DNA of 63,222 bases, filler included. It is 4 parts of 4 records of this genome, joined end to end, with 100 filler letters (N's around TTAATTAATTAA, not from the genome) between each part and the next. Parts side by side here need not be neighbours in the genome. Positions count along the whole stretch, not along the records: positions 22,765 to 44,904 come from SRR22947727_1163; 3 more parts are not named here. One strand, 5' to 3'. Both the position numbers and the translations under genes were made by a program. This document shows positions 7,305 through 53,820 of the stretch, one piece after another. Numbering within the stretch: the first letter of the stretch is position 1; each line of letters opens with the position of its first letter. The notes beneath the pieces were generated by a model. The model saw nothing but the letters and a program-made list of their open reading frames with translations, was not told where the DNA came from and made no database searches.

Positions 7305-7411
7305 ATTTTAGGCTCTTTTATGGCTAATATTAATCTTTGCTTTATCCATATATGCTACATTATCGGTAATTTTTTGGTTCTCATAGTAATATATGAATTA
7401 GGTTAGATTAA

Positions 7412-9661
7412 ATGGTTGATAATATAACTAGTGATAAATCGATAATTATCGATGAGCATATTGATGATGCGCTTTCTTCACGATATCTTGCATATGCATT
7501 ATCAACTATTACTCAAAGGGCTCTACCCGATGTCAGGGATGGCTTAAAGCCGGTTCACAGGCGAATTTTGTATGCGATGCGTCAATTAAAACTTAATCCC
7601 GAAAATGCTTATAAAAAATCAGCAAGAATAGTTGGTGATGTGATGGGGCAATATCACCCGCATGGTGATGCATCAATATATGATGCTCTTGTGAAATTAA
7701 GTCAAAGTTTTTCAACACGATACCCATTAGTCGATGGACAAGGCAATTTTGGTAACATTGATGGTGATAGCCCTGCTGCAATGAGGTATACAGAAGCTAA
7801 AATGACTTCTGCTGGAGTTGCTTTATTAGACGGGCTTGATGAAAACTCAGTTGATTTCTCATCAACCTATAATGAAGAGGATGAAGAACCTGATGTTTTG
7901 CCAGCTGGATTTCCAAACCTTTTAGCTAATGGTTCCCATGGGATTGCTGTAGGGATGGCAACTTCAATTCCTCCGCATAACGTATCAGAAATTTGTTCTG
8001 CTGCATTACATTTAATTAAAACACCCAATGCACGGGTATCTACATTAATGGAATATATTAAGGGGCCTGATCTACCTACAGGAGGTATTATTGTAGAAAC
8101 AAAAGAATCTATGCTGGAAGCCTATAAAACAGGAAAAGGAGGGTTTAAAGTAAGGTCAAAATGGTCAACCGAAGACCTAGGCCGCGGTATGTATCAAATA
8201 ATTATTACTGAGATACCCTACCAGGTTCAAAAATCTCGTTTAATTGAAAAATTAGCAGAAGTTATAGAGTCTAAAAAGGCACCATGGCTCGAAGATGTAA
8301 GAGACGAATCTACTGAAGACGTTCGTATTGTTCTTGAACCTAAAAGTAAAAATATTGACCCTCACTTATTAATGGAGAGCTTATTCAAAATTACTGAATT
8401 AGAAAGCCGAGCTTCACTTAATATGAATGTTTTAGATGCAACTCGAACACCTCGTGTCATGAACCTCAAAGAAGTTATTCAAAGTTATTTAGATCACTTG
8501 CGTGAAGTTTTACTTAGAAGATCAAAACAGCGTCTTGAAAAAATTAATTATAGGCTAGAGGTCTTAGATGGCTATATGAAGGCGTTCCTTAACTTAGATG
8601 AAGTTATAAGAATTATACGATATGAAGATAAACCTAAAATAGAGCTAATAAGTCATTTCCAACTTACTGAAAGACAAGCTGATGCAATTTTAAATATGCG
8701 TTTGCGTGCTTTAAATAAATTGCAAGAAATTGAAATTAGTAACGAGAATAATCTTCTACTTGCGGAGAAAAATAATATTGAGACATTACTTGAATCGCCA
8801 GGTGAACAATGGAGTAGGATATCTGATCAAGTTAAGGCAATTAAAAATGAGTACAATTTAAAAACTGTTTTAGGTGCTAGAAGGACATCATTTTCTAATC
8901 TTCCAGAGATTGATATAGATTTAAGCAGAGCTTTCATACAAAAAGAACCAATAACTGTTGTTATGTCGGAAAAAGGCTGGATCAGAGCAATGAAAGGTCA
9001 TAGCTCTGATAAAAGTGTTATTAAATACAAAGATGATGACAAAGAAAGATTTTTTCTACAATGTTTAACTACAGATAAATTAATTATTTTTGCTTCAAAC
9101 GGTAAGTTTTATACAATTGGAGCTGACAAATTGCCCGGAGGTAGGGGTAATGGAGAACCAATAAGACTTCTCATCGATTTAGAAAATGATCATGAGCCTG
9201 TTGGAATGTTTGTTTATAATTCCGATAGAAATCTTTTAGTTGCCAGTTCTGACGGGTATGGTTTTCGGGTTAAAGAATCTGATATCGTTGCATCAACTAA
9301 AGGGGGAAGAAAGACTTTAAATGTAAAAGGTGATGCAGAAGCAATTCGATGTATTGAGATAGTAGGAGAGAAAATTGCTTCTATTGGAGAAAACCGTAAA
9401 ATATTAGTTTTCAATATCGATGAGCTCCCTGAAATGACTAGAGGGAAAGGGGTTAGGCTTCAAAAATATAAAGATGGTGGCCTTGCTGATGTGACTACAT
9501 TTAAAGAGGATGAAGGGCTTAGTTTTATTGATAGCTCTGGGAGGTCAAATACAGTACAAGACTGGAAGATTCTCCAAGGAAGACGGGCTGGAGCCGGTCG
9601 CTTAGCACCACGAGGTTTTTCTCGACAAGGTCTTTTTTCTCCGGATAAAAGGCTTAATTAG
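7412..9661 (+). CDS. parC: DNA topoisomerase IV subunit A
   Basis: [29 protein letters not shown]; about 750 aa with short CTD and [14 protein letters not shown] as in alphaproteobacterial ParC. Confidence 0.95.
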
Positions 9662-22664: not shown

Positions 22665-22764
22665 NNNNNNNNNNNNNNNNNNNNNNNNNNNNNNNNNNNN
22701 NNNNNNNNTTAATTAATTAANNNNNNNNNNNNNNNNNNNNNNNNNNNNNNNNNNNNNNNNNNNN
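22665..22764. other. Artificial contig linker
   Basis: N-run + TTAATTAATTAA (stops in all six frames) + N-run, 100 nt. Confidence 0.98.
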
Positions 22765-22870
22765 ATATTTTTTTAATTATTAATATTATTCCAACCCCTA
22801 ATACAATGTGTACAATATTTGGGTGCCAATGATCACCACAAATTCCTAATAAATGTTCTAAATATTTCAT
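22765..22870 (-). CDS. Small His/Cys-rich membrane protein, partial (not in ORF track)
   Basis: ATG overlaps the queE stop (ATGA); MKYLEHLLGICGDHWHPNIVHIVLGVGIILIIKKI, open to the contig end. Confidence 0.6.
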
Positions 22871-23598
22871 ACTCCAGTTTTTTTATTCCAAATTTCTATA
22901 TGTAATCTTGTAGTAAAATTAATATGATTATTTTTTGCTAATTCAACCACAAATAATTTGTTTTCATTTAATAATTCTTGATTTTCACCTGCTGGCATTA
23001 AATAAATTTTATTTCTATCTATATGCTCCATATATACATCAATAATTTCTTCCCATTCTTTAAGTTTATTAATAACAAATTTAAATATAGTGTTGTATTT
23101 ATTTAATTCAATAATAACATCTTTTTTAAATGTCATTGATCTGTCGTTACCACTATTTAATAATTTAGGACTACAATTCCATAGGTCAATATTTAATAAT
23201 AAATATTCATTAGGCATTATAGTACCATTTGTTTCAACTTCAAAATATGCGTGTGGATTAATTTCTTTGTAAATGTATTTCATAAATTCTTCTAATCCCT
23301 TTTGTTGCATAGTTGGTTCTCCGCCAGTCAAAATAACGTGAGCTCCTAGTTTTATTGCTTTTATACATTCTTCATCTAATATTTCATTTACTGGTTTTGA
23401 GGTAGCTTTCATCCATACCTCTACTGTATCACATCTAAATTCTGCACCATTATGTAATTCTCCATCGAATTGAGTTCCCATACCGCCACACATAAGATTA
23501 CAACCTCCTAATCTAACAAATACACTTGGAATACCAACTGTTTTACCTTCTCCTTGAATTGAATAAAATACCTCGCTAATTGCTAATTTCTGATCCAT
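22867..23598 (-). CDS. queE: 7-carboxy-7-deazaguanine synthase (radical SAM)
   Basis: SEVFYSIQGEG, VFVRLGGCNLMC...CDT, ILTGGEP, EVETNGT, SPKL, RLH. Confidence 0.93.
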   Translation of the reverse strand: MDQKLAISEVFYSIQGEGKTVGIPSVFVRLGGCNLMCGGMGTQFDGELHNGAEFRCDTVEVWMKATSKPVNEILDEECIKAIKLGAHVILTGGEPTMQQKGLEEFMKYIYKEINPHAYFEVETNGTIMPNEYLLLNIDLWNCSPKLLNSGNDRSMTFKKDVIIELNKYNTIFKFVINKLKEWEEIIDVYMEHIDRNKIYLMPAGENQELLNENKLFVVELAKNNHINFTTRLHIEIWNKKTGV

Positions 23599-23989
23599 TA
23601 TATATAATAGTTGATGATTTTGTTTCTGCTAATTGTATTTCACAAATAGGTAGTTTTGCTTCATTTTTAATTCTTGTAAATAACCAAATAGCCATATTTT
23701 CAGCACTAGATTCAAAAGGTAATTTTCTGTATGGCTCATTAGCTAAATCAAGCACATCACATAAAGAATCTTTATCCCATAATAAAAAATAGTGATCATA
23801 ATATTTTATTATTGGCTCTACAAGAGCATCTATATCACTAAACAAAACAGTTAATCCATTTTTTATATTAGTAAATTCAAACTTACAAATAACATCGTAA
23901 GTATGTCCGTGTAATCTTCCACACTTTTCTCCTGCGGATTTATTTCTATGACCTGCATAAAAATAATATTTTTTTTGAATTTTTATCAT
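23576..23989 (-). CDS. queD: 6-carboxy-5,6,7,8-tetrahydropterin synthase
   Basis: F.AGHR, CGRLHGHTY, DH..L, SAENMA, ET. Confidence 0.92.
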   Translation of the reverse strand: MIKIQKKYYFYAGHRNKSAGEKCGRLHGHTYDVICKFEFTNIKNGLTVLFSDIDALVEPIIKYYDHYFLLWDKDSLCDVLDLANEPYRKLPFESSAENMAIWLFTRIKNEAKLPICEIQLAETKSSTIIYNGSEISN

Positions 23990-24867
23990 GATTGAGTTCC
24001 TGCTAGTTTCGCATATTTAATTTTTAATATTTCGCATTGATGAATCAACACACTATAATTTAACTGTGCTTTTTCAGTCAAATTAAGATTATATTTTTCT
24101 ACAAAGTTATTAATTTTGTTTTTATAATTTGAAATTATTTCTTCATTATTAAGATTTTTCATTAATTTCTTATCTCCTAATGAATCTAAAACACCATATC
24201 TAACTGGAGTAAGCCAACTGGTTGAATCACTCGTAGAACAAAAGTTACAATCTCTCAAAAGTTTCATTTCGGTACATCCAAGTAGGTGTATATCTATTTC
24301 TGGTTTTTTATTTTTAATGTAATTAGCTAATTGATATACATATTCTTTTTTCTTAATAATTCTTAATTCTGGTATGCTTAAAGCTATGTAATCACTATAC
24401 TCTATCATCTTATCTAATCCCTTTCTACCATCTTCAAAATGAAAAACATTAATTTGTCTATTTGGAAGATTTTCTTTCATATATTCTCTAAACTCCCAAG
24501 CTGCATCTACACCTAATATTTTTTGACAATCAACTTCAACATAAGTGCCTTTAAAATTATTTACTTTTATAAATTCTATAATAAGATTTACCCATTCAAA
24601 TAAGAATTTTTTATCTTTTTTACCTTTTGCAGCACCAAACATTAAAGTAAATAAACCACTATCCATTATTGTATGTCTAGAATGTTTATCAATAATTTTA
24701 GGTACTTCACTTATTGAAGTATTTTTATTGCCAATTTTATTCACTATAAAAGGATATACTGTAAAAAGAGAATAATTTACTTTAGCTGCATTTACACATA
24801 AAAAATGTGGTAAAGTTTCACAACCAGCAAAATGAACTTTTAAATTTTCTTGATTAGGAATAATCAT
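23986..24867 (-). CDS. dpdA: DpdA-like DNA 7-deazaguanine transglycosylase (TGT fold)
   Basis: DSGLFT (TGT DSGxF), IHLLG (TGT H.LG), SDSTSW motifs; no TGT C-terminal zinc site; coupled to queD/queE in a phage. Confidence 0.75.
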   Translation of the reverse strand: MIIPNQENLKVHFAGCETLPHFLCVNAAKVNYSLFTVYPFIVNKIGNKNTSISEVPKIIDKHSRHTIMDSGLFTLMFGAAKGKKDKKFLFEWVNLIIEFIKVNNFKGTYVEVDCQKILGVDAAWEFREYMKENLPNRQINVFHFEDGRKGLDKMIEYSDYIALSIPELRIIKKKEYVYQLANYIKNKKPEIDIHLLGCTEMKLLRDCNFCSTSDSTSWLTPVRYGVLDSLGDKKLMKNLNNEEIISNYKNKINNFVEKYNLNLTEKAQLNYSVLIHQCEILKIKYAKLAGTQS

Positions 24868-25214
24868 ATATCTACTCTTGCACCACCTCTATTATCTTCA
24901 AAAACTTCTACCCATATACAACCCTCATCTTGAAAATGTTGTAATATATCTTCTGCTATCATTTCACAACTCATACTATCAAATTCCAATATTGATCCAT
25001 AACATTCAGTTAAATAGTATTGAACTATTTCTTCTTCCATAAATATTTCTATTTGTCTGTCAGGATCAATAACTTTATAACCTAATCTAAATCTAAAATT
25101 ATGTCTGTGTTTGTGAGATAAAAATTTAACTTGTTCTGGAGCATTCACCCATTTGTGAAATCCAACCATTTCAAAATCTAATATTACTGTTCGTTTAACT
25201 TGAGAATTTTCCAT
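24864..25214 (-). CDS. dpdL: QueD-like T-fold protein, putative CDG decarboxylase (DpdL-like)
   Basis: GFH.W..AP, LSHKHRHNF (LxxxHRHxF), SCEMIA, VEVFED..GGA; second QueD-like gene in the cluster. Confidence 0.7.
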   Translation of the reverse strand: MENSQVKRTVILDFEMVGFHKWVNAPEQVKFLSHKHRHNFRFRLGYKVIDPDRQIEIFMEEEIVQYYLTECYGSILEFDSMSCEMIAEDILQHFQDEGCIWVEVFEDNRGGARVDI

Positions 25215-25735
25215 AATGCTTTTTCTAGTTTTTCGTCAATTTTTAATAATGCCTCTTGAACTTTTAATCCATCTTCTTGACTAAATTCAAAAGATATTTT
25301 AAATTTACTACTTTCTACATTGGAATCCGAATTTTCTGAAAAAAAATTTTCAATTTCTGTATCATCATAATCATATTTAACAACATTAACTCCCCAATCA
25401 TTTAAAGGTAAATCTGACCATTCATTACCTAAAATATCCCAATCCCATTCTCCAAAACTTGAGTTATCTTTAATTATAAACTCTTTTTTTTGTTCTTCTG
25501 ACCAATCTAATACCTGATCAATATATACTTCAAATAAACCAGCAGATTTACATGCTTTTAATCTCATGTTACCGCCTAAAACTACCATATTTTCATCTAC
25601 TACAATAGGTCGTTTTTCAAGCATTTCAGGAAAACTTTTTATTGAATTAACTAATTTTTTAAACTTTGCTTTGTTTATATATCTAGGATTATTTTTATTT
25701 TCATTAACAGTTTTAATATTTACTAATTGTATCAT
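25184..25735 (-). CDS. ParB/Sulfiredoxin-like domain protein
   Basis: NPR.I, L..SI..F, PIVVDENMVVLGGNMRLKA, IKDN..FGEWD. Confidence 0.85.
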   Translation of the reverse strand: MIQLVNIKTVNENKNNPRYINKAKFKKLVNSIKSFPEMLEKRPIVVDENMVVLGGNMRLKACKSAGLFEVYIDQVLDWSEEQKKEFIIKDNSSFGEWDWDILGNEWSDLPLNDWGVNVVKYDYDDTEIENFFSENSDSNVESSKFKISFEFSQEDGLKVQEALLKIDEKLEKALWKILKLNEQ

Positions 25736-25944
25736 GTTTGCTTATTTTGATTATACAAATATAAATATAAATCCCATATTTTTTCACTTGCTATTTTTTG
25801 GTTTTTATATGTTTGTGGTGATCTAGTTATTAATCCATTGTCGTTTACTTCGATATAACATTCTTTTTTATATTGAACTGGTACTATATAAATTTTAATA
25901 TTTTTATCTAAACACCAACTTTGAGCTTTAAGGTATATATTCAT
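25732..25944 (-). CDS. Hypothetical phage protein
   Basis: 70-aa ORF; ATGA overlap with the ParB-like gene and short overlap with the upstream zinc-ribbon ORF. Confidence 0.7.
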   Translation of the reverse strand: MNIYLKAQSWCLDKNIKIYIVPVQYKKECYIEVNDNGLITRSPQTYKNQKIASEKIWDLYLYLYNQNKQT

Positions 25945-26089
25945 AATTGTATTTATTAATCATTTCTTTACATCCTATACAAGTTAAAGCTGACCAACTA
26001 AAATGATATACTTTAAAACATGCACTACAATTAGGACAAACAATAATTTTACCTAATCCAGCTCTTGTATGTTTATTTACTTTTTTCAA
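25928..26089 (-). CDS. Small zinc-ribbon protein, 53 aa (not in ORF track)
   Basis: TTG start overlaps the helicase stop (TTGA); MKKVNKHTRAGLGKIIVCPNCSACFKVYHFSWSALTCIGCKEMINKYNYEYIP, two CxxC pairs; fills the gap exactly. Confidence 0.8.
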   Translation of the reverse strand: MKKVNKHTRAGLGKIIVCPNCSACFKVYHFSWSALTCIGCKEMINKYNYEYIP

Positions 26090-27765
26090 TCCCACGGTAT
26101 ATTAGTTTTAATTTTTAAAGCTGGAGAATCATTATCTATACATCTATATACTCCACCATTTTTAAAATCAGGAGCAACATAAAAACTACCTAATTGACCA
26201 TTTTCTTTTCTTTTAACTTTTTCAATATAAACAGTAACTAAATCACTACTGAATTGAGTTTTTTGACCAATATTTCTAAATACTATCATACCATTGTAAC
26301 ACTTATTAAAAAAATCTGCTGATCCACTAATACTGTATAATGTTGGTTTTTTATATTGACCATTTTCACTTTCAATTTTTCTTGGGTGTGCTACTAAAAA
26401 TAAATGTGTATTTGTTTGTTGACAGAATTGAGTAATTTGGCTTAACTCTCTTCCTATATAACTAAAATCTCTTTGTGCGGAATGATCTAGCATATTCCAA
26501 GGATCAATAACACATACGTTTATTCCTTTTTGTAATACTAATTGTTTAAATAATTTTAAAATACCTTTTAGAGTTAAATTTTCTAAATCTATTTTAATCC
26601 AAAAAAAATGATCTTCTATAAAATCTTTAACTTGATTTAAATCGTCGTTATTACAATTTTTACCCATTAATTTATTTGCTATTCTTTTTATATGACCCTC
26701 GTATGGAAAACTTTCTGGAGAAAACATGGCACACCTAAAATCGTGATCAACAGCCATATTACATAACATTTGATCTAAAACGTCAGATTTTCCACTATTA
26801 GGAATTCCACTTACTACCGTCCATTCTCCCATTCCTATTTTTAAATAATCAGTACTATTTGGTAATCCTACATCATAATTTTTAACTCCATTCTCATTAT
26901 AATTTAAAACATTTTTCCATAAATTACCAATATTCAAAACACCCTCTAAAGGAAAGTTTTTAGCTTGATCTATAATATTTCTTAATACATCAACACCTTT
27001 TTTTACTAATACCTCATTAGCATCTTTAAATTCTCCAAACTCTACATATTTACATCTGTATCTTCCAAATCTTCTAGATAATTCATTTCTTAATTGTAAA
27101 CCAGCATCATCATTATCAGTACATAAAATAATTTGTTTTTTATTATCAAAATATTTCCAACAATTATCTAAATAATCTAATCTTTGATTCCCTTTACTAG
27201 CACCATTTGGAACACTACATACACTATACAAACCAGCTTCATGTAAACTTAAAGCATCCATTTCTCCTTCAACTATGTAACATTTTTCTGAACTTTTTAT
27301 ATTATTTAAACCATAAAAAATTAATTCAGCACCTGAAACTAATTTAAAATTCTTTTGTGAATCTCTAAATTTAACATTAATTATTTCTTCATTTCTGTAA
27401 TAATTGAAATTTATACATTTTCTTTTTGCTTGTACTTGAGGGATATATTCTAATGATTCTCCTACTTTCCAATGTATTAAAGTTGGCTCAGAAATTAATC
27501 TTTTATTAAACCATTTAATTACTCTTTCAGTAATATTAGAATTAATTTTTGGAGGTAAAATATATTCTTTTTTCTTTTGAAATTTAATATTACCACCCCA
27601 CCCACAATGATGACAATTATATAATCCATCATCAATATTAACACTTAAACAAGGATCATTTTTTTTTCTTCTAGTACTTGAACATTTAGGACATAACGTA
27701 TGAACTTGACCAGATGACTGTTTTAGTTTAATACCTAAATCTTGTAATGATGAGTAGTTGTTCAT
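26086..27765 (-). CDS. Twinkle/T7 gp4-like primase-helicase
   Basis: CPKC...CHHC zinc finger, TOPRIM VEGEMD and DNDDAG, Walker A GIPNSGKS, IDPWN, VAHPRK, ISGSADF. Confidence 0.92.
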   Translation of the reverse strand: MNNYSSLQDLGIKLKQSSGQVHTLCPKCSSTRRKKNDPCLSVNIDDGLYNCHHCGWGGNIKFQKKKEYILPPKINSNITERVIKWFNKRLISEPTLIHWKVGESLEYIPQVQAKRKCINFNYYRNEEIINVKFRDSQKNFKLVSGAELIFYGLNNIKSSEKCYIVEGEMDALSLHEAGLYSVCSVPNGASKGNQRLDYLDNCWKYFDNKKQIILCTDNDDAGLQLRNELSRRFGRYRCKYVEFGEFKDANEVLVKKGVDVLRNIIDQAKNFPLEGVLNIGNLWKNVLNYNENGVKNYDVGLPNSTDYLKIGMGEWTVVSGIPNSGKSDVLDQMLCNMAVDHDFRCAMFSPESFPYEGHIKRIANKLMGKNCNNDDLNQVKDFIEDHFFWIKIDLENLTLKGILKLFKQLVLQKGINVCVIDPWNMLDHSAQRDFSYIGRELSQITQFCQQTNTHLFLVAHPRKIESENGQYKKPTLYSISGSADFFNKCYNGMIVFRNIGQKTQFSSDLVTVYIEKVKRKENGQLGSFYVAPDFKNGGVYRCIDNDSPALKIKTNIPWD

Positions 27766-28262
27766 ATATCTAAATCCTGAATGTCTAACAATAATTTTTT
27801 TTCTACAACATAACTTTCAACTTTTGTCATTTTTATATTTTTTTCTTGAAAAACCATTTTATTAGTAGCAAATCCTTCAAACCTATATCTAGGATAAATA
27901 CAACTAAATAAAGCAAATAAATTACAGTTACTTTTTGCATATTTTGGTATCATTAATGGATTATTATAATTTCTATTAACCTTAACATCAACTGTATTAT
28001 TAATAAAAACAGCATCAAAATAATCTGATCCTAATTCTTTTGAAGTATTATGTATTTTAAAATCAGGATATAAATTTAATTCTCTACAAAAAATAAATTC
28101 AGCTCCAAAGCCAACAATATTTAGTTTTACATCACTTTTATCATTTACTGTCTTAAAACCATTCCAACCAGTTTTTATTTTATTATTGTGTCTTTGATTA
28201 GCTGCTAACTCAACTATTTGTTTTTCATAATTATCCAGTTTGTATATTTTGCCTTTTTTCAT
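27762..28262 (-). CDS. Hypothetical protein, possible PD-(D/E)XK nuclease fold
   Basis: G.GAE...D...VDVK arrangement; ATGA overlaps on both sides. Confidence 0.5.
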   Translation of the reverse strand: MKKGKIYKLDNYEKQIVELAANQRHNNKIKTGWNGFKTVNDKSDVKLNIVGFGAEFIFCRELNLYPDFKIHNTSKELGSDYFDAVFINNTVDVKVNRNYNNPLMIPKYAKSNCNLFALFSCIYPRYRFEGFATNKMVFQEKNIKMTKVESYVVEKKLLLDIQDLDI

Positions 28263-28942
28263 TGTTTGTTTTTTCTGTTTTTATATAATTCCATAAATCT
28301 GTCTATAAATTTCATTCCATATTTATCAAGGTGCCTTAATTTTATTAATGTTAAAAAATTAGTTTTCCAAAAATCATCTAACCTTATAAACTGACAAGCT
28401 AAATAAACGTCTTTAAGATCGTACTTATCGATCCTTTCTATTTTATCTAAACACTCTATCCATTTTTTTAATTGTGTTTCTGAATTAGGTTTATATCGTT
28501 CTGGAAACAATTCTATAAAGTGTAAATAACTCTTTAAAATAGTTTCACTAATATTACTTTTATATATATATATATTATTATATATAATATTACTTTGTGG
28601 CGATTTTTCCAGCGCTGGTTTTTCCATGCGTGGTTTTTTCGTGTCTGGTTTTTCATTTAGATAATAATTAGTGCCAACATATTTACCTTTTTCAGAAATA
28701 CGTTCTCTAATTAAATAGCCGTTATCAATTAATTCTTTTAATCTTTTTCTAATTGTATCTCTCCCTTGTTTAAAATGGCCGCAAATAAATTCTGTAGTAA
28801 TTACTTGTTTTGAGGTATGACTAAACATCCAACAATATAAACCAGTAGCACCAATACTTATATTTTTATGTCTAAATATATTACTTGGTACAATAGTAAA
28901 ATTGTCAAACTTTTTAGGTTTGTAAATTCGATTATATTCCAT
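28259..28942 (-). CDS. Phage replication initiator (N-terminal winged HTH)
   Basis: NFTIVPSNIF, ISIGATGLY, GRDTIRKRLKELIDNGYL; central iteron-encoded KP repeats; C-terminal DDFWK..LT..KLR. Confidence 0.78.
   Translation of the reverse strand: MEYNRIYKPKKFDNFTIVPSNIFRHKNISIGATGLYCWMFSHTSKQVITTEFICGHFKQGRDTIRKRLKELIDNGYLIRERISEKGKYVGTNYYLNEKPDTKKPRMEKPALEKSPQSNIIYNNIYIYKSNISETILKSYLHFIELFPERYKPNSETQLKKWIECLDKIERIDKYDLKDVYLACQFIRLDDFWKTNFLTLIKLRHLDKYGMKFIDRFMELYKNRKNKQ
28549..28654. repeat. Putative phage replication origin: four 15-bp-period iterons plus AT-rich tract
   Basis: Minus strand GAAAAACCAG/AAAAAACCAC/GAAAAACCAG/GAAAAATCGC at 28645, 28630, 28615, 28600, followed by a (TA)n-rich stretch at 28549-28594. 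Confidence 0.7.
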
Positions 28943-39521: not shown

Positions 39522-42500
39522 TTATTTACATTTACAGTTACACGATTTATTTTTTAACTCATCAACCTCTGCTTTAAGTTCTTTTATAGCTTCAATAAGC
39601 AATCCAGATATTTTACCATAATCAACACCATATTTGTCAACATCTTCAGCATAAGTTACAACCTCTGGCAAAACTTCATTAATTTCTTGAGCAATAACAC
39701 CAACCTTTCTTGATTTATCTTTACCCTTTTTTTGCGTATAATAAACACCTCTTAATTTATTTACCTTTTGAATTGCGTTATCTACTGTAACTATATTTTC
39801 TTTTGACCTTTTATCTGAATAAGCTACAATATCATTTGATGCAATAATTTTACCAGTAACGTACAAGGAATAAGCTGACGATGTTGTTGTACCACCAACT
39901 GCTAAACAAATGTTTGCCCTATGATAATAATAATGCCATCCAGTTGAACTATTATATTCACCACCATTTCCGCCACTGTCATACATACCAATATTAACAT
40001 CGCCATAGGACATATTAATACCCGTATAAGAACCCCTTGAGCCATCTATTCGCCAAGTTCCATAAGTTCCAGTGTATGGGTAAAAATGTGCACTATTAGT
40101 AGAGGAAAATAATCCAGCACCGCCACCCAAATTAATCCAACTTGGCACATATAAATAACCATTTGAACCCTGAAATCTCCAATCTTTGCTACCATTACCA
40201 GCGTATATATGTGTATCTCCACTTGCACCTGGTACAGATCTAAAAACATTATAACCATCTTTGCTTAACATCCCCATTTGACTAGTATTGCCATAAAAAT
40301 ATCCTAAAACAGTGCCAGATGTATTTTGCAATTCAATACCAGAATCACTAGCCGAGCCAGATTGTATTCTCAAATATGATGAGCTATCACCTTTAATTCT
40401 CATGTTAGTTGTTGGAAACATAATTTGCCCTTTTAATGACAAATGTCCAGCATTACTAACACTGGCTACATTACCCACACCAAGAGTTCTAAATATCCAA
40501 CCTCTTCCAGAGCTACTATTCATGTTAAAATAAGTTGCCCAGTTACCATTCACTAACCCATAAGTTCCATAAGGTCCAGTGCCTTGAAACATTAAACCAT
40601 ACGTTGGATCGGCTGAAGCACCACCATATAAAGAGATACCATAACCATCGGTTCCATTAGTTCCGCTTACTCCAAAACTTCTAGCAGTTACTGATTCAGG
40701 TATTATAACATTTCCGTTTTCTATAATAGTCAGTTTAGCATCGGCTAAAGTTGCACTCCCAGCACCAGTTTGAGGTCCATTTAATATATGCACTTTTCCT
40801 TGAGCATTACCAGATGTTAAATCCGTTCTCTCAAAAACTATTGCGGATTTTCTATAAGCAAGATTATTTTTTTCAAAATAACCAAAATGAATACCTTGAT
40901 AATATCCAGAGCCAAAGGATCCGCCAATTGATGCATATTTATTATTGCCAGTTCCTAGATAAACATCTAAAGGAGTTTGTGCAGTTGTTGAGGAAATTCC
41001 CACATTTCCATTGCCTAAAATTGTTATTCTATTAGAGTTATTAGTTGTAAAATTTAGAGGCAAATTATCTCTTAATCCTATATAGCCATTTGCGGTGTCT
41101 AATCCTATAACCATTCCTTGACTATCTAAAGTTTGATTTGCTCTAGCAATAGATATAAATGATTGTGCTGTCGTTCCTCTAACCCCTAGATTATACCCGT
41201 ATAAACTTGGACCATAAGCTGATGAGGTTGCATTTATAAGTAATTGACCATATTGATTAATCCGCATTCTTTCATTAGAGCCATCAGTATAAAATATGAA
41301 ATTACCAGCTTGACTATTATAAAAAAGTAAATCTGTAGCACTACTATAAATATATTGCTTTCCAGTTCCTGATGTTTGAAAAGCTATTTGCCCACCAGAA
41401 CTTCCACTTATACTTAAAGTATTATATCCACTTGAATTTGTGAGTGTAGTAGTTCCTATTCCTAAATCTGTTGTAAAATATGAATTACTTATTCCAGTTG
41501 ATAGCTTTATAACATCATTAACTCTAAATTCATTATCTATATCTCTCCTTATTCTTAATGCCCAATTACCATCAGAATCTAAAATTCCAATACCAGGGTT
41601 AGCAGTGGAACCGCTATCACCATAAATATAACCTAATAAATTGCCATCTGTTTCATATAATTGAATCCCGCTATAATTAGCGGCTCCTGCGGTTACCGAG
41701 AAATAACCTACTGAATTGATTTGAGCTTGACCAGTAGTTGTACCCCTGAATTGCCATGTGTTATTGCCACCAATATACAACTCATCACCAGCACCAGTTC
41801 CTATTCTAACAGCATTTGTTCCAGCATCTTCAATAAACAATTCAGAATCGTTAGTATAAAATTTAGAAGGTGTGCCGAATGTTGCCTGACCTTGATTATT
41901 AATACTAGCTTTATTACCATTGACTACATCTCTAAATATCCAACCTCTGTTGGATGAGTTATCCATAGTGAAATATGTTGCCCAGCTTCCAGTTACATAT
42001 CCCATTGTGCCATACGTACCAGTACCCATAAACATCATCCCGTATGTTGGCTGTCCACTATTTGCACCACCATATAATGAAATACCCTTGCCATCAGTTC
42101 CATTTGAACCAGATATACCGATTGCAGCGGCTGATAATGTATCGGATACAATAGAACCCCCAATTACTGCATTTCTTGAAATATTTAAATCTCTAAATCT
42201 ATGACCACTATAACCTAAATCAATCTCAGTATCAGTATAAGAACCTAAATAACCAGTATCAAATAAAAAATTCCCTTGATTTGTATTAAAATATAAGCCA
42301 CTAGCATTATTAATACTTTCAATATAACCATAACCATTATCGTTATAAGGACCAAATCTCATTAAATTATCACCCGAACCAGCTAAACTAATTTGACCCA
42401 CACCACCGCCTTGTGTAATAACAGTACCTTCAATTGTTAAATTTGTGGCTGTTGTTATACTTCCCTGGACATTTAAAGAACTTGCCGCAACCGCTGTCGC

Positions 42501-44904
42501 ATCATAAGTAGTTCCAATCGTCATTCCCCCGTCAACGTGTAATCTTTTATTAGCTACAGCAGAACCACCACCACCAAAAGCAAAAGTTCCATAAGTTCCA
42601 TTATAGTATAAAAATTCGTTTGCTGTGCCACCATCATTAAAACCAATTCCGCACCATGCGTCTGTACTGGTTAATTGTAATTGAAAGTCATTAGTGGTTG
42701 TCATTGTTGTTAATCCGTTAACATTTACGTTTCCAGAAAACGTTGAAACACCTGAACTGTCAATTCTAAAATGTGTTACACTATTGTCAGATTTATTAAA
42801 ATAATAACCATCAGAACCACCACTAAAAATCAAATTATTACTTTGTTGCCTTATTGATGCTGGATTGGTATATGCCGCTGCATTTGTAAATTGCAATGCT
42901 TTTTGTAAAGTAGTATTTCCATCACCACCAATAGTTAATCTTGCAGTTTCATCAGTTCCTAAAACTAAACTTCGACCTGAGCTATTGTGATAAATATGCA
43001 TAGCATTTTCGTCCAAAGCAATAGCACCTTGATAGCCATTCCCATCTATCATTAATTGACCATTAGACGATGCATCCATTGATATATTTGTGCCATCACC
43101 AACTTCAACATTGCCAGTAAAATGTGCAGATGTACCAGTTAATGCTCCAGTTAATGTACCACCAGTTAATGGTAAATATGGACCGCCAATATCACCAGAG
43201 GACATCGGAAAACAGTTTGTTAATGTATTATTTACAGTTGTTTGAGTAGTTACAACATTAATTTCCCAAGCTCCAAGATAGTTGTTAATATCGGCAGTAT
43301 AACCAGCAAAGAAATCCCTTACAATAACTTGTAAATGGTTCCATGTGCTAGTAGTATCACCTATCCAAACACAATGCTCCGTTCCATTATCACCAAATCT
43401 AACTGTATAATTTTGATTAGAACTCTGACCTAAAACAGTTGCTGAAGGATAAAACCAAGTTGTATTGCCAGAACCAACGTTTTGATATGTATAACCGCCT
43501 ACAAATACTGTAACACTTTCTTGTGTACGATAATCAAATATATCAACAACAAATTTAATCATGTCATCATGACCAGTTCCTCCAGTTGGCAAAGCAATTT
43601 CAATAGCACCAGTATAAGCATTTTGAGTAGTATAAAAATCACCACCATAAGGTTTATTTATATAACCGCCACCAGTAGCTGTTTGATATACGGATTTTGT
43701 AGTTTTTAGATTTTCACTTGTGTTAATATTACCAACAACATATAAGTCATTTAAAAACTTAGATTCGCCACTAATAAATAATTGTGTTGCTGTTGAATCA
43801 TATTTTATACTGGGTGATCCAGCACCTGAGCCAAATATTAATGGCACATTATCATTTAACTGAGTTGTTACAGTTATAACATTTCTGTTAATATTCCCAT
43901 CTATTCTAAAGTATTCTGTAATATCACCAATACCATTATCTGATTTAAATATTATCTTTTTATCGTTGCTGTTATTTTGAATTATAAGTTCACCATTTAT
44001 ATTATCAATATAGCCATCTGTGCCATCATGATATATTTCTAAGTCGGCTGATGAACCTAAACTCAATTGTACATTATCAAGGAATCGCATATTCCTATGA
44101 ATCTTGGTAAATCCAACAGAGCCATCTATTCTAAAATAAGGTGTTATGCCACCAGACATATCATCACCATAAAAAATTATATCTTTATCATCTGCAGTTT
44201 GTCTAATTTCTAAGTTACCAGTCAAATTTTGTATTAAAGATATTGTACCATTATGATATATTTTTAAATCTTGATCAGTACCTACACTTAATTGAGAATC
44301 ATCTGTAAAGTTCATGTCCCTATCAACTCTGTTAGGTACATCGTTTGCTCGACCAGCACCAAACACTTTTATTAATCCATTACTAGCATGAGATTTTATA
44401 ACTACTGCTATTTTTTGAACTTGACTTGTAAATGCAGTTGGTTTAGTTGCTGTAAATGCACCAGCAGTTTCAGATACATATAATTCATCACCTATACTAA
44501 AACTAGAGGTGTCAATGCCACTAACAGCTCCAAACATTACAGCTTCACCCTCTGCCTCATCTGCAATAGTTTCATTTAATACACCAATAGCTGGCATACT
44601 AGCTACAACATTAGCATCTGCTGCAACCACTTCAATAACATTGCCACTAGGTGGTGTTGCTGTTGGTGCTGCATGAACTACAACTCCTTTTGCAAGTGAA
44701 CCGCCACTAACATTTTTTACAGTAACTTCTATTCTTTTTGCAACCTCAGCATCACCCTCAGATGCAATAACACCATTTGTTATTGTAATGCCATCACCAG
44801 CAGTAAAACTAGCTCTTGCTCTAGTAGTTGTAAAATATAAGTTAGTTGTTCCCTCGCTTAAATCATCAGTATCCTTACTGCTTAAATCAAGATTTGCACC
44901 AGTT
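39522..44904 (-). CDS. Long tail fibre with C-terminal peptidase S74 intramolecular chaperone, 5' truncated
   Basis: Frame stays open past 44630 to the contig end (TDDLSEGTTNLYFT..RAR); Gly/Thr/Asn-rich repeats; C-terminal YSDKRSKENI, GVIAQEI..VLPEVV, VDYGK...LLIEAIKEL. Confidence 0.9.
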
Positions 44905-45004
44905 NNNNNNNNNNNNNNNNNNNNNNNNNNNNNNNNNNNNNNNNNNNNTTAATTAATTAANNNNNNNNNNNNNNNNNNNNNNNNNNNNNNNNNNNNNNNN
45001 NNNN
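44905..45004. other. Artificial contig linker
   Basis: N-run + TTAATTAATTAA + N-run. Confidence 0.98.
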
Positions 45005-45126
45005 CCATTTTTCTGGCCAATTTTTCCTCCAAGCGCTTCAAGTTTAGCTGCGATTGCTAAATCATCGGCGTGAGCAGGGATTCCCATGGCGACGAGAATG
45101 GAAAACGTAAATAACTTAAATTTCAT
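45005..45126 (-). CDS. Secreted protein N-terminus, truncated (not in ORF track)
   Basis: MKFKLFTFSILVAMGIPAHA-DDLAIAAKLEALGGKI: signal peptide with AHA cleavage site; open to the contig end. Confidence 0.55.
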
Positions 45127-45272
45127 GATTTGGATTGAACGATAAAACTCCGGATTTGAGCCTTAGTAAATGACGTGACCAAGGGGAGTGAAGTCGAAAA
45201 TTCATTCCGTAAACACGTTGGTTCGGGCCCTTTTCCATTGTATTTTGGCCAAAACGGGATTTCATCAACAGA

Positions 45273-46025
45273 ATGCCTGATTCTGAAAAATGCAGCGTAC
45301 TCGGCGCGATTCCAGCTCGTTGGGGATCAACCCGTTTTCCGGGAAAGCCTCTGGAATTGATTGCCGGAAAACCGTTGGTCCAGCACGTATGGGAGCGGTG
45401 TTCGGAGTGTTCGTCATTGACCGATGTGGTTGTGGCCACGGATGACGCGCGAATTTTCGAAGCGGTCGAAGCTTTTGGCGGGAAAGCAGTTATGACGCGT
45501 GATGATCATCCGAGCGGGACTGACCGGATGGCTGAAGTAGCGGAGGCGTTTCCGGATCATGATGTCTTGATCAATATTCAGGGTGATGAGCCATTGATTG
45601 ATCCCAAATTGATTGATCAACTTGCGGAGGCCTTGGTGGCAGATGCCAATTTACCGATGATCACGGCGGCAAATCCGATGGCCTCTGATGACCCGGCGAT
45701 TAACGACCCCAATGTGGTGAAGGTGGTCTTTGATGTGAATGGTTTGGCACTATATTTTTCGCGAAGTGCGCTGCCTTTTCAGCGGAATGTGGATGTGCCT
45801 GAATTAACCGTCTATCGGCACAAAGGAATTTACGGCTTTCGGCGTTCGTTTTTATTGGAGTTCGTTTCGTGGGAACCATCTGTTCTGGAACGAGTTGAAG
45901 GGCTTGAGCAGCTTCGGGCGATGGAGAACGGAGCCCGAATTCGAGTGATTTCTACAGATGATGAGTCGCCGGGGATTGACACACCCGAGCAGGCGGCTTT
46001 ACTGAACGAACAGTTGTTAGGATAA
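45273..46025 (+). CDS. kdsB: 3-deoxy-manno-octulosonate cytidylyltransferase
   Basis: [42 protein letters not shown]. Confidence 0.96.
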
Positions 46026-46035
46026 TTTAAATATA

Positions 46036-47637
46036 ATGAAGTATATCTTCGTCACAGGTGGTGTGGTCAGTTCTCTCGGAAAAGGTCTTGCAGCGGCGGC
46101 GCTGGGGACGCTTTTGGAGCATCGTGGGCTGAAGGTGTTGATTCAGAAATTTGACCCGTATCTCAATGTGGATCCGGGGACGATGAGTCCGCTCCAGCAT
46201 GGGGAAGTTTATGTTCTGGATGACGGGGCCGAAACGGACTTGGATTTGGGGCACTATGAGCGTTTCACAAACGGTAAGCTGTCGCAGCTGAACAATCTCA
46301 CGAGCGGACAGGTTTATGAAAATGTGATCCGCAATGAGCGGAAGGGAAAATATCTGGGCGCAACCGTTCAGGTAATCCCTCATGTGACAGATGAAATTAA
46401 GAACCGGATTCACGAGGTCGCGGAAAAGATGGATGCCGAAGTGATCATCACCGAAATTGGTGGGACAACCGGTGATATCGAAGGATTGCCGTTTTTAGAG
46501 GCACTCCGCCAATTTCAATTGGATGAAGGCCGTCAGAACGTGATTTTTATTCATGCAACGCTTGTGCCCTTCATTAAGGCGGCGCAGGAGCTGAAGACAA
46601 AGCCGACTCAGCAAAGTGTGGCTAAGTTGCGTGAGATCGGGATCGCGCCTGATGTGATTTTGTGTCGTTCCGAGCATGAAGTCGAAGAAGATCATCGCCG
46701 GAAGTTGTCGATGTTTTGCAACCTTCCTCAGGAGTCAGTTATCCAATTTCTAGATCTCGAAAATACGATTTATGAGGCGCCATTGAAGTTGCATGAAGAA
46801 GGACTCGATCGAATTGTTTGCCAGCTTCTCGGTCTGGATACTAAAGAACCGGATCTGACGAATTGGCGAAACATGGTGGATCGGATGGTGAATCCGACCC
46901 ATAAAGTGAAGATCGCAGTGGTTGGAAAGTACATCGAGTTACAGGATGCCTATAAATCGATCTACGAGGCTTTGACTCACGCGGGAGCAGCGAATGATTG
47001 CCGAGTCAAAATTATCCGGATTGATTCCGAAAAGCTGGAGGAAAAAGATGTCCCGACTTTGTTAGCGAAGGCTGATGCCATTCTCATTCCCGGAGGCTTT
47101 GGTGAGCGGGGAATTGAAGGTAAAGTTGCTGCGGCAAAGTTTGCCCGCGAAAATTCGATCCCCTATTTTGGGCTTTGCCTGGGAATGCAGATCGCGACAA
47201 TCGAATTTGCCCGCAATGTCTGTGGGCTCGAAGGTGCCAACAGTGTGGAATTTGATGAGAACGGGCCGCATCCGGTTATCTGCCTTTTAGAAGAACAGAA
47301 AGAGGTTGAAGACAAAGGAGCTTCGATGCGATTGGGGACTTGGGAGGCTAAATTGAAAAAAGGAAGCTTGGCCAACCGTCTCTACGGAACTTTGGAAGTC
47401 AGCGAGCGCCATCGTCATCGCTACGAATTCAATCAGGATTATCGTGAACAGATGGAAGGGGCGGGCTTTTCAATTTCAGGAAGTTCTCCCGACGGAACGC
47501 TATGCGAGATCGTTGAGATTCCTCATCACCCATTTTATCTGGCGGTGCAATTCCATCCGGAGTTTCAAAGCAAGCCAACTGCGCCCCACCCTTTGTTCAG
47601 CGGTTTTGTAAAGGCCGCCATGGACGCAAAGGGATGA
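46036..47637 (+). CDS. pyrG: CTP synthase
   Basis: [47 protein letters not shown]. Confidence 0.98.
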
Positions 47638-47667
47638 AGATTGGGGGCAATAATTTGAAGCGGGCAT

Positions 47668-47702
47668 AAAAAAACAGCACCGATTATCGGCACTGTTTTT
47701 TT
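47668..47702. terminator. Bidirectional intrinsic terminator between pyrG and the pilin gene
   Basis: A7-CAG-CA-CCGA-TTA-TCGG-CA-CTG-T7; pairs fully, with G-U, on the minus strand. Confidence 0.8.
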
Positions 47703-47729
47703 AAAAAAGTTTTACGAAAAGAAATGGTG

Positions 47730-48377
47730 TTAGTTAGATTGCCAATTCGTAATGAAGCGTGATTGAACTGCTGAATCTTCGGAATCTGCATCTGCACCAA
47801 CAGTTGACCAAAGATCATAGGTCGGATTGAATGTCGTCCTCTTTTTCCCATTTTGTTTACTGCTGGGAGGAAGTAAATTTGGAGGATCCGCAATATATCG
47901 GACAGGGCTGTTGAATGTATCGATCACATAGAACGGTGGGCCTGAACCAGAAGGGGAATAGGAGCGCTTCCGGTCTGATTTCCGATTGCTCCAATAGTCT
48001 AATTTCTGGACGTAGATTTTTTCTTCAGGACCGTCGCCAATGCCTTCCACGGCATCTGCTTTCCCTTCCGGATCAAGATTAAAATCCCCCGATAGGTGTT
48101 GGTAGAGAATCTCACTACCATTCAGTCCTCTCTCACTCCGACTTCCCGCTTCGGGGACCTGTGGAAAAATTCCATTGTCGATCTGATACTTTTCCAAGCC
48201 ACTGGTGATTTCAGCCAGAAATGCAGTGGTGTTTTTCCGATTAATTGTCGCCCGAATGCCGGGCATGGCTGCTGCCGTTATGCCAGCCAGAACAATAATG
48301 ATTGAAATGACGACCATCAACTCAATTAGACTGAATCCCGATATTTGTTCTCGCCGCTGAGTTCTCATAGGTAACAT
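47730..48377 (-). CDS. Type IV pilin / pseudopilin (GspG-like)
   Basis: G|FSLIELMVVISIIIVLAG prepilin motif; C-terminal YDLWS.GAD. Confidence 0.9.
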   Translation of the reverse strand: MLPMRTQRREQISGFSLIELMVVISIIIVLAGITAAAMPGIRATINRKNTTAFLAEITSGLEKYQIDNGIFPQVPEAGSRSERGLNGSEILYQHLSGDFNLDPEGKADAVEGIGDGPEEKIYVQKLDYWSNRKSDRKRSYSPSGSGPPFYVIDTFNSPVRYIADPPNLLPPSSKQNGKKRTTFNPTYDLWSTVGADADSEDSAVQSRFITNWQSN

Positions 48378-48439
48378 GTTACACCCATTTAATTTACATT
48401 GTCAATACAATTCAGGGCATTGCTACTCAAGGGAGATGC

Positions 48440-49711
48440 TTATCCCTGATTGTTCATCTCTGTGATGATGGAAATCATGGGCATGAACAATGCGATAACG
48501 ATTGTTCCGACAACAAGAGCCAGCAAAACGATCATGATCGGTTCCAGCATTGAAGTCATTGCGTCAACTGCCATGTCGACCTCGTCGTCATAAACGTCGG
48601 CGATTTTTAGAAGCATATCAGGCAATTGCCCAGTTTCTTCTCCAACGTCAACCATACTGATAACCATTGGTGGGAAAATTCGGCTGGCTTCGAGCGGTGC
48701 AACCACCGATTCACCTTCACGAACTGCTTCATGAACTTTATCGATGGCATTGGCAACGATCATATTTCCCGAGGTTTCCCGCGTAATGTTCAAGGCCTGC
48801 AAAATTGGAACACCTGACGTCACGAGAGTGCCGAGGGTTCTGGTGAATCGTGAAATCGCACTTTTGAGTTGAATCGGACCAAACAAAGGAATGTACAGCT
48901 TCCATCGGTCAATTGAGTTGCGGCCGGCAGCCGTCATTGCAAAAACCTTCCAGCCTACAAATGCGACGACCAGTACAATGAGAATGAGTAACCAGTTGTT
49001 AGTCAATCCGTCACTTATTGCGATGACAAAACGAGTAATTCCAGGTAGAGGGACGTCTCCGAGCATGTCCGCAAAAATTTGCTCAAATTTCGGGACAATA
49101 ACCGTCATCAGGAAAACCAGAATCAACATCGCGATCATAAGAACGATGATTGGATAGACCATCGCAGCGATGATTCGGTTTTTCAGTTTTTGAGCTTTTT
49201 CCTGGTACTCAGCGAGTCGATTGAGAACCAACTCCAATACCCCGCCAAGCTCACCGGCTTTAACCATGTTGACGTAAAGTTTGTCAAAGATTTTTGGGTG
49301 CTGACCGAGGCTTTCTGAGAATGTTCCACCCCCAGCTACTGAATCGGCCAAGTGAGTGACCGTTCCCGCCATGACCCGGTTTTTCTCCTGATTTCCCAGA
49401 ACGGAAAGTCCGCGAAGAAGTGGAAGTCCCGCATCAACCAGTGTCGCCAGCTGACGGGTGAAAATCATAAGGACTTTGCCTTTTACTCGTCCTCCCGCAG
49501 CATTTTTAGAACCTGATTTGCCTTTTTGTCCTTTTTTTGCACGACGTTTTGCAGTGCTTGAAACGCCTCCTTTTCCCGCAGGTGCGACCTGGGTTGGATA
49601 GAGTCCACTCTTGCGAAGCTGTGCGATTGCGTCCGCCTCGTCACCCGCAGTAACGGATCCAGTTGTTTCTTCGCCCCGAGCGTCGAGAGCAATGTATTCA
49701 AAGTTTGCCAT
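48440..49711 (-). CDS. pilC: PilC/GspF inner-membrane platform protein
   Basis: FTRQLATLVDAGLPL, AGELGGVLE, GEETGQL, LEP.MIV. Confidence 0.92.
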   Translation of the reverse strand: MANFEYIALDARGEETTGSVTAGDEADAIAQLRKSGLYPTQVAPAGKGGVSSTAKRRAKKGQKGKSGSKNAAGGRVKGKVLMIFTRQLATLVDAGLPLLRGLSVLGNQEKNRVMAGTVTHLADSVAGGGTFSESLGQHPKIFDKLYVNMVKAGELGGVLELVLNRLAEYQEKAQKLKNRIIAAMVYPIIVLMIAMLILVFLMTVIVPKFEQIFADMLGDVPLPGITRFVIAISDGLTNNWLLILIVLVVAFVGWKVFAMTAAGRNSIDRWKLYIPLFGPIQLKSAISRFTRTLGTLVTSGVPILQALNITRETSGNMIVANAIDKVHEAVREGESVVAPLEASRIFPPMVISMVDVGEETGQLPDMLLKIADVYDDEVDMAVDAMTSMLEPIMIVLLALVVGTIVIALFMPMISIITEMNNQG

Positions 49712-49824
49712 AATTGATTCTACTAACAGATTAAAATATTAAGAATCCCTCACCTGAAGCATATCAGAAAAAGAAATTCGATGTCACGCAAAAATATTAT
49801 TTTTTCGTGAAATTGTAAATTTTT

Positions 49825-51540: not shown

Positions 51541-51590
51541 AGAATCGTAAATCGCTTACCAAAATCAGTTTCTTGTTTCTTGAATCATTC

Positions 51591-53321: not shown

Positions 53322-53424
53322 GCTCGGATATGGTAAAAAGTAGTGTGAGTGCGCAAACTAAAAAGAATTGGCTCCGCACGCAATACAAAACGCAATCTAA
53401 TTGCAAAAATCGAGCAAAATCACT

Positions 53425-53778: not shown

Positions 53779-53788
53779 CAGCGGATAC

Positions 53789-53820
53789 AAAAAGGGGCAC
53801 TGCGTTTCCGAGTGCCCCTT
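53789..53820 (-). terminator. Intrinsic terminator after the MFS gene
   Basis: AAGGGGCACT...AGTGCCCCTT stem with a T-run on the minus strand. Confidence 0.8.

Follow-up and report, generated by a model that had tools for sequence, protein, structure and literature searches.

A phage module pairing DpdL with a DpdA1-like transglycosylase, with 2'-deoxy-7-deazaguanine as its likeliest product

Which base does a phage place in its DNA when its genes for early 7-deazaguanine synthesis stand beside a DpdA-type transglycosylase and a second QueD-like protein, and no QueC is visible? The question is raised by a gene module at one end of the phage contig SRR22947727_1163, which lies in the window, that is, the whole analysed stretch of 63,222 nt, in which four contigs are joined end to end and which is not one molecule. 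Of the eight known deazaguanine DNA bases, the candidate product, 2'-deoxy-7-deazaguanine (dDG), is understood least, and its proposed maker, DpdL, is unproven. The module is read here, with a probability of roughly 0.6, as one with which the phage modifies its own DNA with a 7-deazaguanine base, dDG being the likeliest product. This reading is built on gene identities, folds, motifs, gene linkage, and the mutual exclusivity of DpdL and QueC. In the proposed pathway, FolE (probably encoded just past the contig end), QueD, and QueE would convert GTP to 7-carboxy-7-deazaguanine (CDG). DpdL, in which the catalytic Cys of QueD is replaced, would take CDG in place of QueC and decarboxylate it to 7-deazaguanine. 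DpdA would then exchange guanine in the double-stranded phage DNA for 7-deazaguanine, probably assisted on the DNA by a ParB-like protein, and the resulting dDG would blunt restriction and host nucleases.

The second T-fold protein of the module is DpdL, the proposed CDG decarboxylase, in line with the original prediction. DpdL has been defined as the QueD paralogue of phage phiST (CGPG_00067) in which the CxxxHGH motif is changed to LxxxHRHxF, and it is found in phages having DpdA, FolE, QueD, and QueE without QueC (Cui, Hutinet et al., NAR 2023, PMC10516641). The window protein is 31% identical to this phiST protein (gp040; BLASTP, E 1e-14), shares phrog_17812 with the DpdL of phage ACP17, and carries the signature L32-x3-H36-R37-H38-x-F40, which is invariant in 44 sequences. 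A tblastn search of 50,697 phage records with DpdL matched 17 records, including phiST, phi13:1, phi19:2, and ACP17. The AlphaFold2 model (predicted local distance difference test, pLDDT, 91.9) finds E. coli QueD (4ntk) among its best Foldseek matches, with a template modelling score of 0.71-0.75 and E 1e-6, and the top 11 Foldseek rows are all QueD/PTPS chains. The DpdL profile searched with HMMER against PDB sequences gave chance matches only, and the fold search alone was informative. The gene context is also that of DpdL: DpdA, QueD, and QueE genes are adjacent, QueC is absent from the contig, and FolE is predicted from 103 of 105 relatives.

The original prediction depended on a TGT fold for the neighbouring 293-residue protein, and the fold is present. 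Its model (pLDDT 87.6) matches the Z. mobilis TGT at a Foldseek E of 4e-7 and a VIA Z of 17.7, with a root-mean-square deviation of 3.7 Å over 263 of the 293 residues, and its alignment with TGT is confined to the catalytic barrel. The matches in BFVD, a library of viral models, are phage 'queuine tRNA-ribosyltransferases', including an nt-1 protein, and the DpdA profile returned only chance matches among PDB sequences. Across 51 sequences that represent three DpdA types, four blocks do not vary, namely D69-S-G-x-F73, D113, H194-x-L196-G197, and D214-S-x-x-W218. The catalytic residues of the Salmonella DpdA are Asp95/Phe99, Asp130, Leu236, and Asp256 (PMC10164549), and D69-x3-F73, D113, and L196-x17-D214 fit this pattern by motif and approximate spacing. 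By its modelled fold, the protein is a DpdA, predicted to act as a DNA 7-deazaguanine transglycosylase.

Among the DpdA subfamilies, the profile of the window type matches phiSM DpdA1 (hhalign 91.8%, E 7e-7), from the subfamily to which 9g and CAjan also belong, and a 9g-like DpdA (76%, E 2e-5). Against the phiST DpdA3 (CGPG_00065, gp042), BLASTP gave E 1.3 and hhalign 0.5% and 1.2%, and the two proteins belong to different PHROGs (phrog_887 for the window DpdA and phrog_20335 for the phiST DpdA3). As for DpdA4 of archaeal viruses (DUF6610, PF20314), the window DpdA matched no Pfam family at E<=0.01, and PADLOC and NCBIfam found no DpdA or DpdB model match in the module proteins. The subfamily comparison that had been proposed thus returns DpdL and a DpdA1-like match, and neither DpdA3 nor DpdA4; compared by sequence with DpdA1 and DpdA3 references, the window DpdA is DpdA1-like, not DpdA3. 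Complete G replacement has been linked to DpdA3 (phiST, CP220) and a replacement of 0.1-30% to DpdA1 (PMC10516641). Since the window DpdA is not of the DpdA3 type, the replacement of G in this phage may be partial or complete (some or all G, as first supposed). The residues that separate DpdL-linked from QueC-linked DpdAs come down to V/I at position 193, which is common to both DpdL-linked types and is too little for reading a pocket. In two genome loci, a Prevotella metagenome-assembled genome (L197) and Cruoricaptor ignavus DSM 25479 (L198), QueC comes after a DpdA of the window type (42-49% identity) and no DpdL precedes it; hence the DpdA clade is not strictly tied to DpdL and does not by itself predict the base.

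DpdL and QueC are strict alternatives and never occur together in the loci examined. Scans with the QueE protein across collections of viral and metagenome sequences gave 160 loci, chiefly from marine records, which collapse to 105 distinct QueE DNA sequences. Seventy-eight distinct marine loci span the whole ParB-to-QueE interval: 46 carry DpdL, 29 carry QueC, none carries both, and three carry neither, with a short QueC-like gene in two of the three and a methyltransferase-like gene in the other. A second set of 37 genome loci with the window DpdA type was drawn from gut Bacteroidia, Oscillospiraceae, Faecalibacterium, Veillonella, Thermoguttaceae, and Flavobacteriales. DpdL lies directly upstream of DpdA in 30 of them, QueC takes its place in two, and both are found in none. 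The complete records of the five cultured DpdL phages phiST, ACP17, Roos, MA9V-3, and BUCT-ZZ01 contain no match to the QueC family PF06508, which was detected in 13 of 14 control genomes. Pfam scans also found no QueC or true QueF in the window contig and in two long DpdL-type sisters (L099 and L052).

The same alternation is seen between two near-identical phages. The sister contig L006, a record of 37,350 bases from IMG/VR and the JGI metagenome, aligns with the window by blastn at 89.7% DNA identity over positions 33405-25418 and at 88.2% over 23980-22866, with no alignment in between; the QueE proteins are 93% identical. The unaligned slot holds the C-terminus of the ParB-like protein, DpdL, and DpdA in the window, and the C-terminus of the ParB-like protein, a 242-aa DpdA, and QueC (PF06508 3e-53) in L006. 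The two DpdAs show 23% identity in alignment. This is a clean cassette swap, and the exchange of DpdL and QueC within phages of about 90% identity is the best comparative argument so far for DpdL taking CDG. At least four variants of the slot exist in the lineage, namely DpdA with QueC, DpdA with Gat-QueC, DpdL with DpdA of the window type (26 loci), and DpdA with DpdL and a glycosyltransferase-like gene (20 loci). On a QueE tree of 105 rows, in which the window pairs with L006 (SH-aLRT 95), at least 26 changes of cassette type are needed. Such repeated changes indicate that QueD and QueE are interchangeable between the two routes, and because they pass so freely between variants, the routes would diverge after QueE, with DpdL and QueC both starting from CDG.

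Two of the slot variants were characterized further. The Gat-QueC variant encodes a 395-aa GATase-QueC fusion (L076, 7120-8304; L051, 2698-3882), as in phage 9g, so the slot probably hosts a dG+ variant in these two contigs. The third cassette type consists of a DpdA of about 298 aa, a DpdL with the signature, a glycosyltransferase-like protein of 320-384 aa, often an open reading frame (ORF) of 133-141 aa belonging to no known family, and then QueD. It occupies 20 of the 78 distinct marine loci (L011, 1945-4123; also L030, L037, L053, L060, L113, and L156), and its glycosyltransferase-like protein reaches Glycos_transf_1 at 1e-5 at best, under the cut-off.

The first enzyme of the proposed pathway lies outside the visible part. 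The contig break is real, with a spacer adjoining the module end. The phage contig has 28 ORFs that are 55 aa or longer, and none of them showed a QueC, QueF, or FolE domain, in agreement with the absence of queC and queF first noted. A folE gene follows queE in 103 of the 105 distinct relatives, the two exceptions ending right after queE, and in L006, L099, and L052 a Pfam match bears out the FolE assignment. In L011, folE starts 106 nt past the start of a 43-aa ORF that is near-identical to the last ORF of the window module; the equivalent window position is 22764, the first spacer base. From this geometry and the 103 relatives, folE almost certainly begins where the window contig stops, which strengthens the earlier suggestion that it could lie beyond the break. 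No sequence was found that bridges the break: the IMG/VR contig L005 (7485 bases), with an identical DpdA, stops within queE and gives no extension; an exact 29-base pattern from the small hydrophobic ORF had no match in viral contigs; and the nearest genome (G001) gave no match when contig extension was tried.

The FolE of this lineage has an N-terminal XGPRT-like domain of about 100 residues with a phosphoribosyl pyrophosphate (PRPP) motif (L006, 10729-11031; L011, L099, and L052 alike), which matches the PDB XPRT at E 0.009 and phrog_8995 at 1.4e-4, and it is found in QueC-type and DpdL-type sisters alike. This domain might recycle the guanine released by DpdA.

The precedent for dDG is phiST. 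Measurements have shown dDG in three related Cellulophaga phages, phiST, phi19:2, and phi13:1, whose genomes code for FolE, QueD, QueE, DpdL, and DpdA3 and no QueC (PMC10516641). The dDG product originally predicted is supported by this precedent and by DpdL, DpdA, QueD, and QueE occurring without QueC, and it rests on a decarboxylase whose activity is undemonstrated and on a route for which heterologous expression was negative. Several points weigh against dDG. The decarboxylation by DpdL is the first: no dDG was detected when the dpdL of phiST or ACP17 was expressed with its own dpdA in E. coli, and the authors considered that other enzymes may be needed (PMC10516641). Among the literature records listed for DpdL and, from 2023 on, for 7-carboxy-7-deazaguanine decarboxylase, no later demonstration of DpdL activity was found. 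Furthermore, dDG has been measured only in phages that rely on DpdA3, which is unrelated in sequence to the window DpdA, and the window DpdA type is paired with QueC in L197 and L198. The window itself lacks folE. In sister phages, the glycosyltransferase-like gene beside DpdL is hard to square with a base free of side chains, and fusions to a P-loop kinase-like domain are numerous among DpdL proteins elsewhere, where one DpdL is fused to a phosphoribosyltransferase.

The alternative that survives best keeps the genes and the DNA target and changes the final base. DpdA would insert CDG and the DNA would carry dCDG, or DpdL would then act on that DNA, or DpdL would make an undescribed 7-substituted or otherwise altered deazapurine. 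The unproven chemistry of DpdL and the negative expression test (PMC10516641) leave room for such a product; the DpdA2 of VH7D inserts CDG at low efficiency, dCDG exists in STSV-2, and the coupling of DpdL to a glycosyltransferase-like gene in 20 of the 78 marine loci points the same way, at a Glycos_transf_1 match that stays under the cut-off. However, dDG is the sole non-canonical nucleoside of the phiST-type phages, in which dCDG was sought and not found (PMC10516641), and Pfam found no glycosyltransferase or other tailoring gene in the window cassette. A different final base is unlikely on this balance.

A second alternative arises from the domain architecture of DpdL proteins elsewhere. 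Among the 150 best DpdL matches, 38 are at least 180 aa long, and 36 of these keep the signature. Fifteen of the long forms (P0018, P0025, P0036, P0053, P0128, P0149, and others) carry a C-terminal P-loop kinase-like domain homologous to phiST gp041, and P0091 has an N-terminal phosphoribosyltransferase domain. The gp041 gene of phiST (CGPG_00066; L002, 6302-6799) encodes a P-loop protein right after DpdL and was set aside as not conserved in the 2023 paper (PMC10516641). The DpdL family may thus work on nucleotides in some systems. The base could then be made into a nucleotide by a phosphoribosyltransferase and kinases and incorporated at replication, with a minor or different part for DpdA. 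Consistent with this, AAA_18/33/17 occurs in eight of the 18 long DpdL forms scanned and PF00156 in one; the FolE of the lineage has its XGPRT-like domain, and the cyanophage BUCT-ZZ01 has an XGPRT-like gene within its DpdL cluster. However, the gp041-like domain is absent from the window phage contig and from the 160 marine loci, the XGPRT-like domain is not specific to DpdL since QueC-type sisters have it too, and the DpdL and DpdA genes, which share a 4-nt overlap, always occur together in this lineage. Incorporation as a nucleotide is therefore improbable for the window phage.

A queC or other preQ0-route gene in the unseen genome (giving dPreQ0 or dG+), which would gain from the missing 15 kb or so of a genome of roughly 37 kb, judged from L006, and from the use of QueC or Gat-QueC by sister phages, is very unlikely just past the break or elsewhere, with QueC in 0 of 46 marine and 0 of 30 genome DpdL loci, none in the Pfam scans of two long DpdL-type sisters, PF06508 absent from all five cultured DpdL phages, and the sisters' queC occupying the very slot held by DpdL here; a module serving tRNA queuosine or archaeosine-type modification is equally discounted, and tRNA modification as its purpose was rejected, the 293-aa DpdA aligning to the TGT catalytic barrel only.

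With dDG kept as the likeliest product, the constant companion of the cassette deserves attention. The ParB-like protein contains a nucleotide-binding GxxRxxA box (G54-A61), and GGNMR..A is invariant in 50 sequences. Its ParB_N match in Pfam is below the cut-off (E 0.0019, 18.7 against 26.3), and the homologue in L099 passes at 33.4; on these motifs and matches, it is assigned to the ParB/Srx N-terminal domain superfamily. The gene lies directly upstream of the first DpdL or DpdA gene in all 72 marine loci with enough upstream DNA and is present in 28 of the 37 genome loci, in phage Roos, and beside the phiSM DpdA1. Bacterial DpdA needs the ParB-fold ATPase DpdB (PMC10164549). By sequence, the ParB-like protein is not a DpdB: the DGQQR motif is absent, with GGNMRLKA instead, PADLOC matched only a type II methyltransferase N-domain, and NCBIfam gave only a weak Noc match.

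The C-terminal 77 or so residues of the ParB-like protein fall inside the swapped cassette. The identity of this C-terminus is 0.45 within and 0.28 between cassette types, compared with 0.68 and 0.66 for the N-terminus, and the labels change 8 times on the C-terminal tree and 17 times on the N-terminal tree. Compared with the remaining loci of its own type, the window tail shows an identity of just 0.30-0.33, and plain physical linkage explains the tracking of cassette type equally well. It is tentatively proposed, as an idea that is more doubtful than probable, that the ParB-like protein, DpdL, and DpdA form a self-contained cassette that moves horizontally and in which a small ParB-like NTPase would be the phage counterpart of DpdB, an obligatory partner that would load DpdA onto DNA or drive it there, and whose variable C-terminal tail would suit the type of DpdA. 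If so, the omission of the ParB-like protein would explain the missing dDG when E. coli expressed DpdL and DpdA, and the near-isogenic sisters with DpdL and DpdA or with DpdA and QueC would be a natural test bed for the DpdL reaction. In any case, each swap carries its own DpdA and ParB-like tail, which hints at parts that may have been missing from the failed reconstitution.

The route had been called rare, and the survey does not bear this out. Searched against 1.84 billion representatives, the DpdL profile matches 3061 representative clusters at E<=1e-3, of which 2528 remain at E<=1e-10, and DpdL is carried by 46 of the 78 loci of the window phage lineage. The route is common, with thousands of DpdL clusters, over half of the loci in one abundant marine siphovirus lineage, and many gut phages and prophages.

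The features of the module and its surroundings are collected in the table. Every gene originally named is present on the minus strand, according to ORF calls and matches to Pfam, NCBIfam, and PHROGs. The order after the primase-helicase gene is also as first described; the module is not directly adjacent to it, however, two small ORFs intervening before the ParB-like gene. Each module gene shares 4 to 31 nt with its neighbour. No terminator-like sites were found in 22765-28400, and the promoter scan remained at chance level (37 against 44.5 +/- 8.3). QueD scores 80.7 bits with PF01242 against a cut-off of 22.4 and contains the motif C23-x3-H27-G28-H29 in its translation, and its score with the NCBIfam equivalog TIGR03367 is 60.3, under the cut-off of 89.25. 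The QueE-like protein matches five NCBIfam QueE models at 1e-11 to 6e-19, each far under the equivalog cut-off, and in Pfam it is above the cut-off for Fer4_12 and below it for Radical_SAM.

Table. Positions in the window of the module genes, the exchanged segment, and other features.
Feature	Position	Strand	Match or remark
Artificial inter-contig spacers (N-TTAATTAATTAA-N)	22665-22764, 44905-45004, 55665-55764	no strand	N runs around TTAATTAATTAA
Phage contig	22765-44904	all genes minus strand	23-36% G+C; module at low-coordinate end
Small hydrophobic/membrane ORF, 35 codons, then spacer	22765-22870	-	near-identical 43-aa ORF between queE and folE in L011
QueE-like radical SAM enzyme (7-carboxy-7-deazaguanine synthase)	22867-23598	-	phrog_2076 2.3e-53
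QueD (6-carboxytetrahydropterin synthase)	23576-23989	-	PF01242 1.1e-22
Swapped cassette relative to L006	23981-25417	-	ParB-like C-terminus, DpdL, and DpdA; blastn gap
DpdA (TGT-fold protein), 293 aa	23986-24867	-	phrog_887 4e-24; no Pfam match
DpdL (second T-fold protein, QueD paralogue), 116 aa	24864-25214	-	phrog_17812 3.5e-17; no Pfam or NCBIfam match
ParB-like protein, 183 aa	25184-25735	-	phrog_498 2e-26, phrog_620 1e-24
Small ORF, 70 aa	25732-25944	-	weak PHROG match only
Small Cys-rich ORF, 55 aa	25928-26095	-	phrog_5602 1e-8; conserved in L006 at 7375-7542
Primase-helicase, upstream neighbour of the module	26086-27765	-	Toprim_2 3.4e-13, AAA_25, DnaB_C; within the stretch 89.7% DNA-identical to L006
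1702-aa protein with C-terminal S74 intramolecular chaperone domain, probable tail fibre	39522-44630	-	PF13884 3e-13

The other three contigs of the window are unlike the phage contig in G+C content (about 35% for 1-22664, 45-51% for 45005-55664, and about 35% for 55765-63222, against about 25-31% for the phage contig in the same comparison), and the phage contig was probably binned with them by chance. Its tailed-phage genes, as seen with Pfam, include those for a tail tube, a tape measure, an ERF recombinase, a PDDEXK nuclease, a VRR-NUC protein, a helix-turn-helix replication protein, and the primase-helicase. A tail tube and a tape measure are present and no sheath gene was found in the Pfam scans of the contig, which makes the siphovirus originally supposed plausible. 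The nearest cultured phages are distant phages of Flavobacteriia (Riemerella, Tenacibaculum, Flavobacterium, and Cellulophaga), with 32-36% identity in the primase-helicase and about 31% in the capsid of a sister contig. A host assignment from the bin was rejected, the contigs being mixed in G+C (35% versus 45-51%) and the nearest cultured phages infecting Flavobacteriia. Rfam and tRNA scans of the phage contig found no RNA gene; the only one in the window is a tRNA-Phe at 2497-2572, outside the phage contig.

Compared with known systems, the locus adds nothing new in kind; in this member DpdL is paired with a DpdA1-like protein rather than DpdA3. Its value is mainly comparative: near-identical phages carry strictly either DpdL or QueC in a single slot, and the ParB-like companion is constant. 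The dDG system of phiST shares with the window a DpdL homologue with the same signature, QueD and QueE without QueC, and a transglycosylase of the TGT superfamily in the cluster. However, the transglycosylase there is DpdA3, the MazG-like gene and the gp041 P-loop gene do not stand beside DpdL in the window, a ParB-like gene heads the window cassette, and the host and phage type differ.

The DpdA1 systems of phiSM and the 9g-like Seuratvirus phages (dPreQ1-derived, dPreQ0, and dG+) match the window DpdA by profile, and in phiSM, DpdA1 adjoins a ParB-like gene; these systems rely on QueC or Gat-QueC, whether or not QueF is present, and have no DpdL. L006, with ParB-like, DpdA, QueC, QueD, QueE, and XGPRT-like-FolE genes, has the same order and slot and is 88-90% identical in DNA across the replication genes and those for QueD and QueE, and it differs in having a 242-aa DpdA and QueC in place of DpdL and the 293-aa DpdA. 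In the bacterial Dpd system of Salmonella Montevideo, the gene of a TGT-fold DNA transglycosylase likewise adjoins a ParB-superfamily gene, and the Asp pattern is conserved; in contrast, the phage ParB-like protein has 183 aa and GxxRxxA, not DGQQR, and the bacterial base is preQ0 (PMC10164549).

The order ParB-like, DpdL, DpdA is repeated in Faecalibacterium phage Roos (PP479939) and in prophage-like loci of F. prausnitzii UT1 and Veillonella montpellierensis DSM 17217, with 46% identity to the window in DpdA and 36% in DpdL. Roos differs as a sheath-bearing gut phage in which all three genes are annotated as hypothetical, and QueD, QueE, and FolE are not found next to the trio in Roos and the UT1 locus. 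The UT1 chromosome (L183), V. montpellierensis DSM 17217 (L189), and phage Roos (L001) are growable carriers of the trio with the window DpdA type, and such cultured carriers make the chemistry testable.

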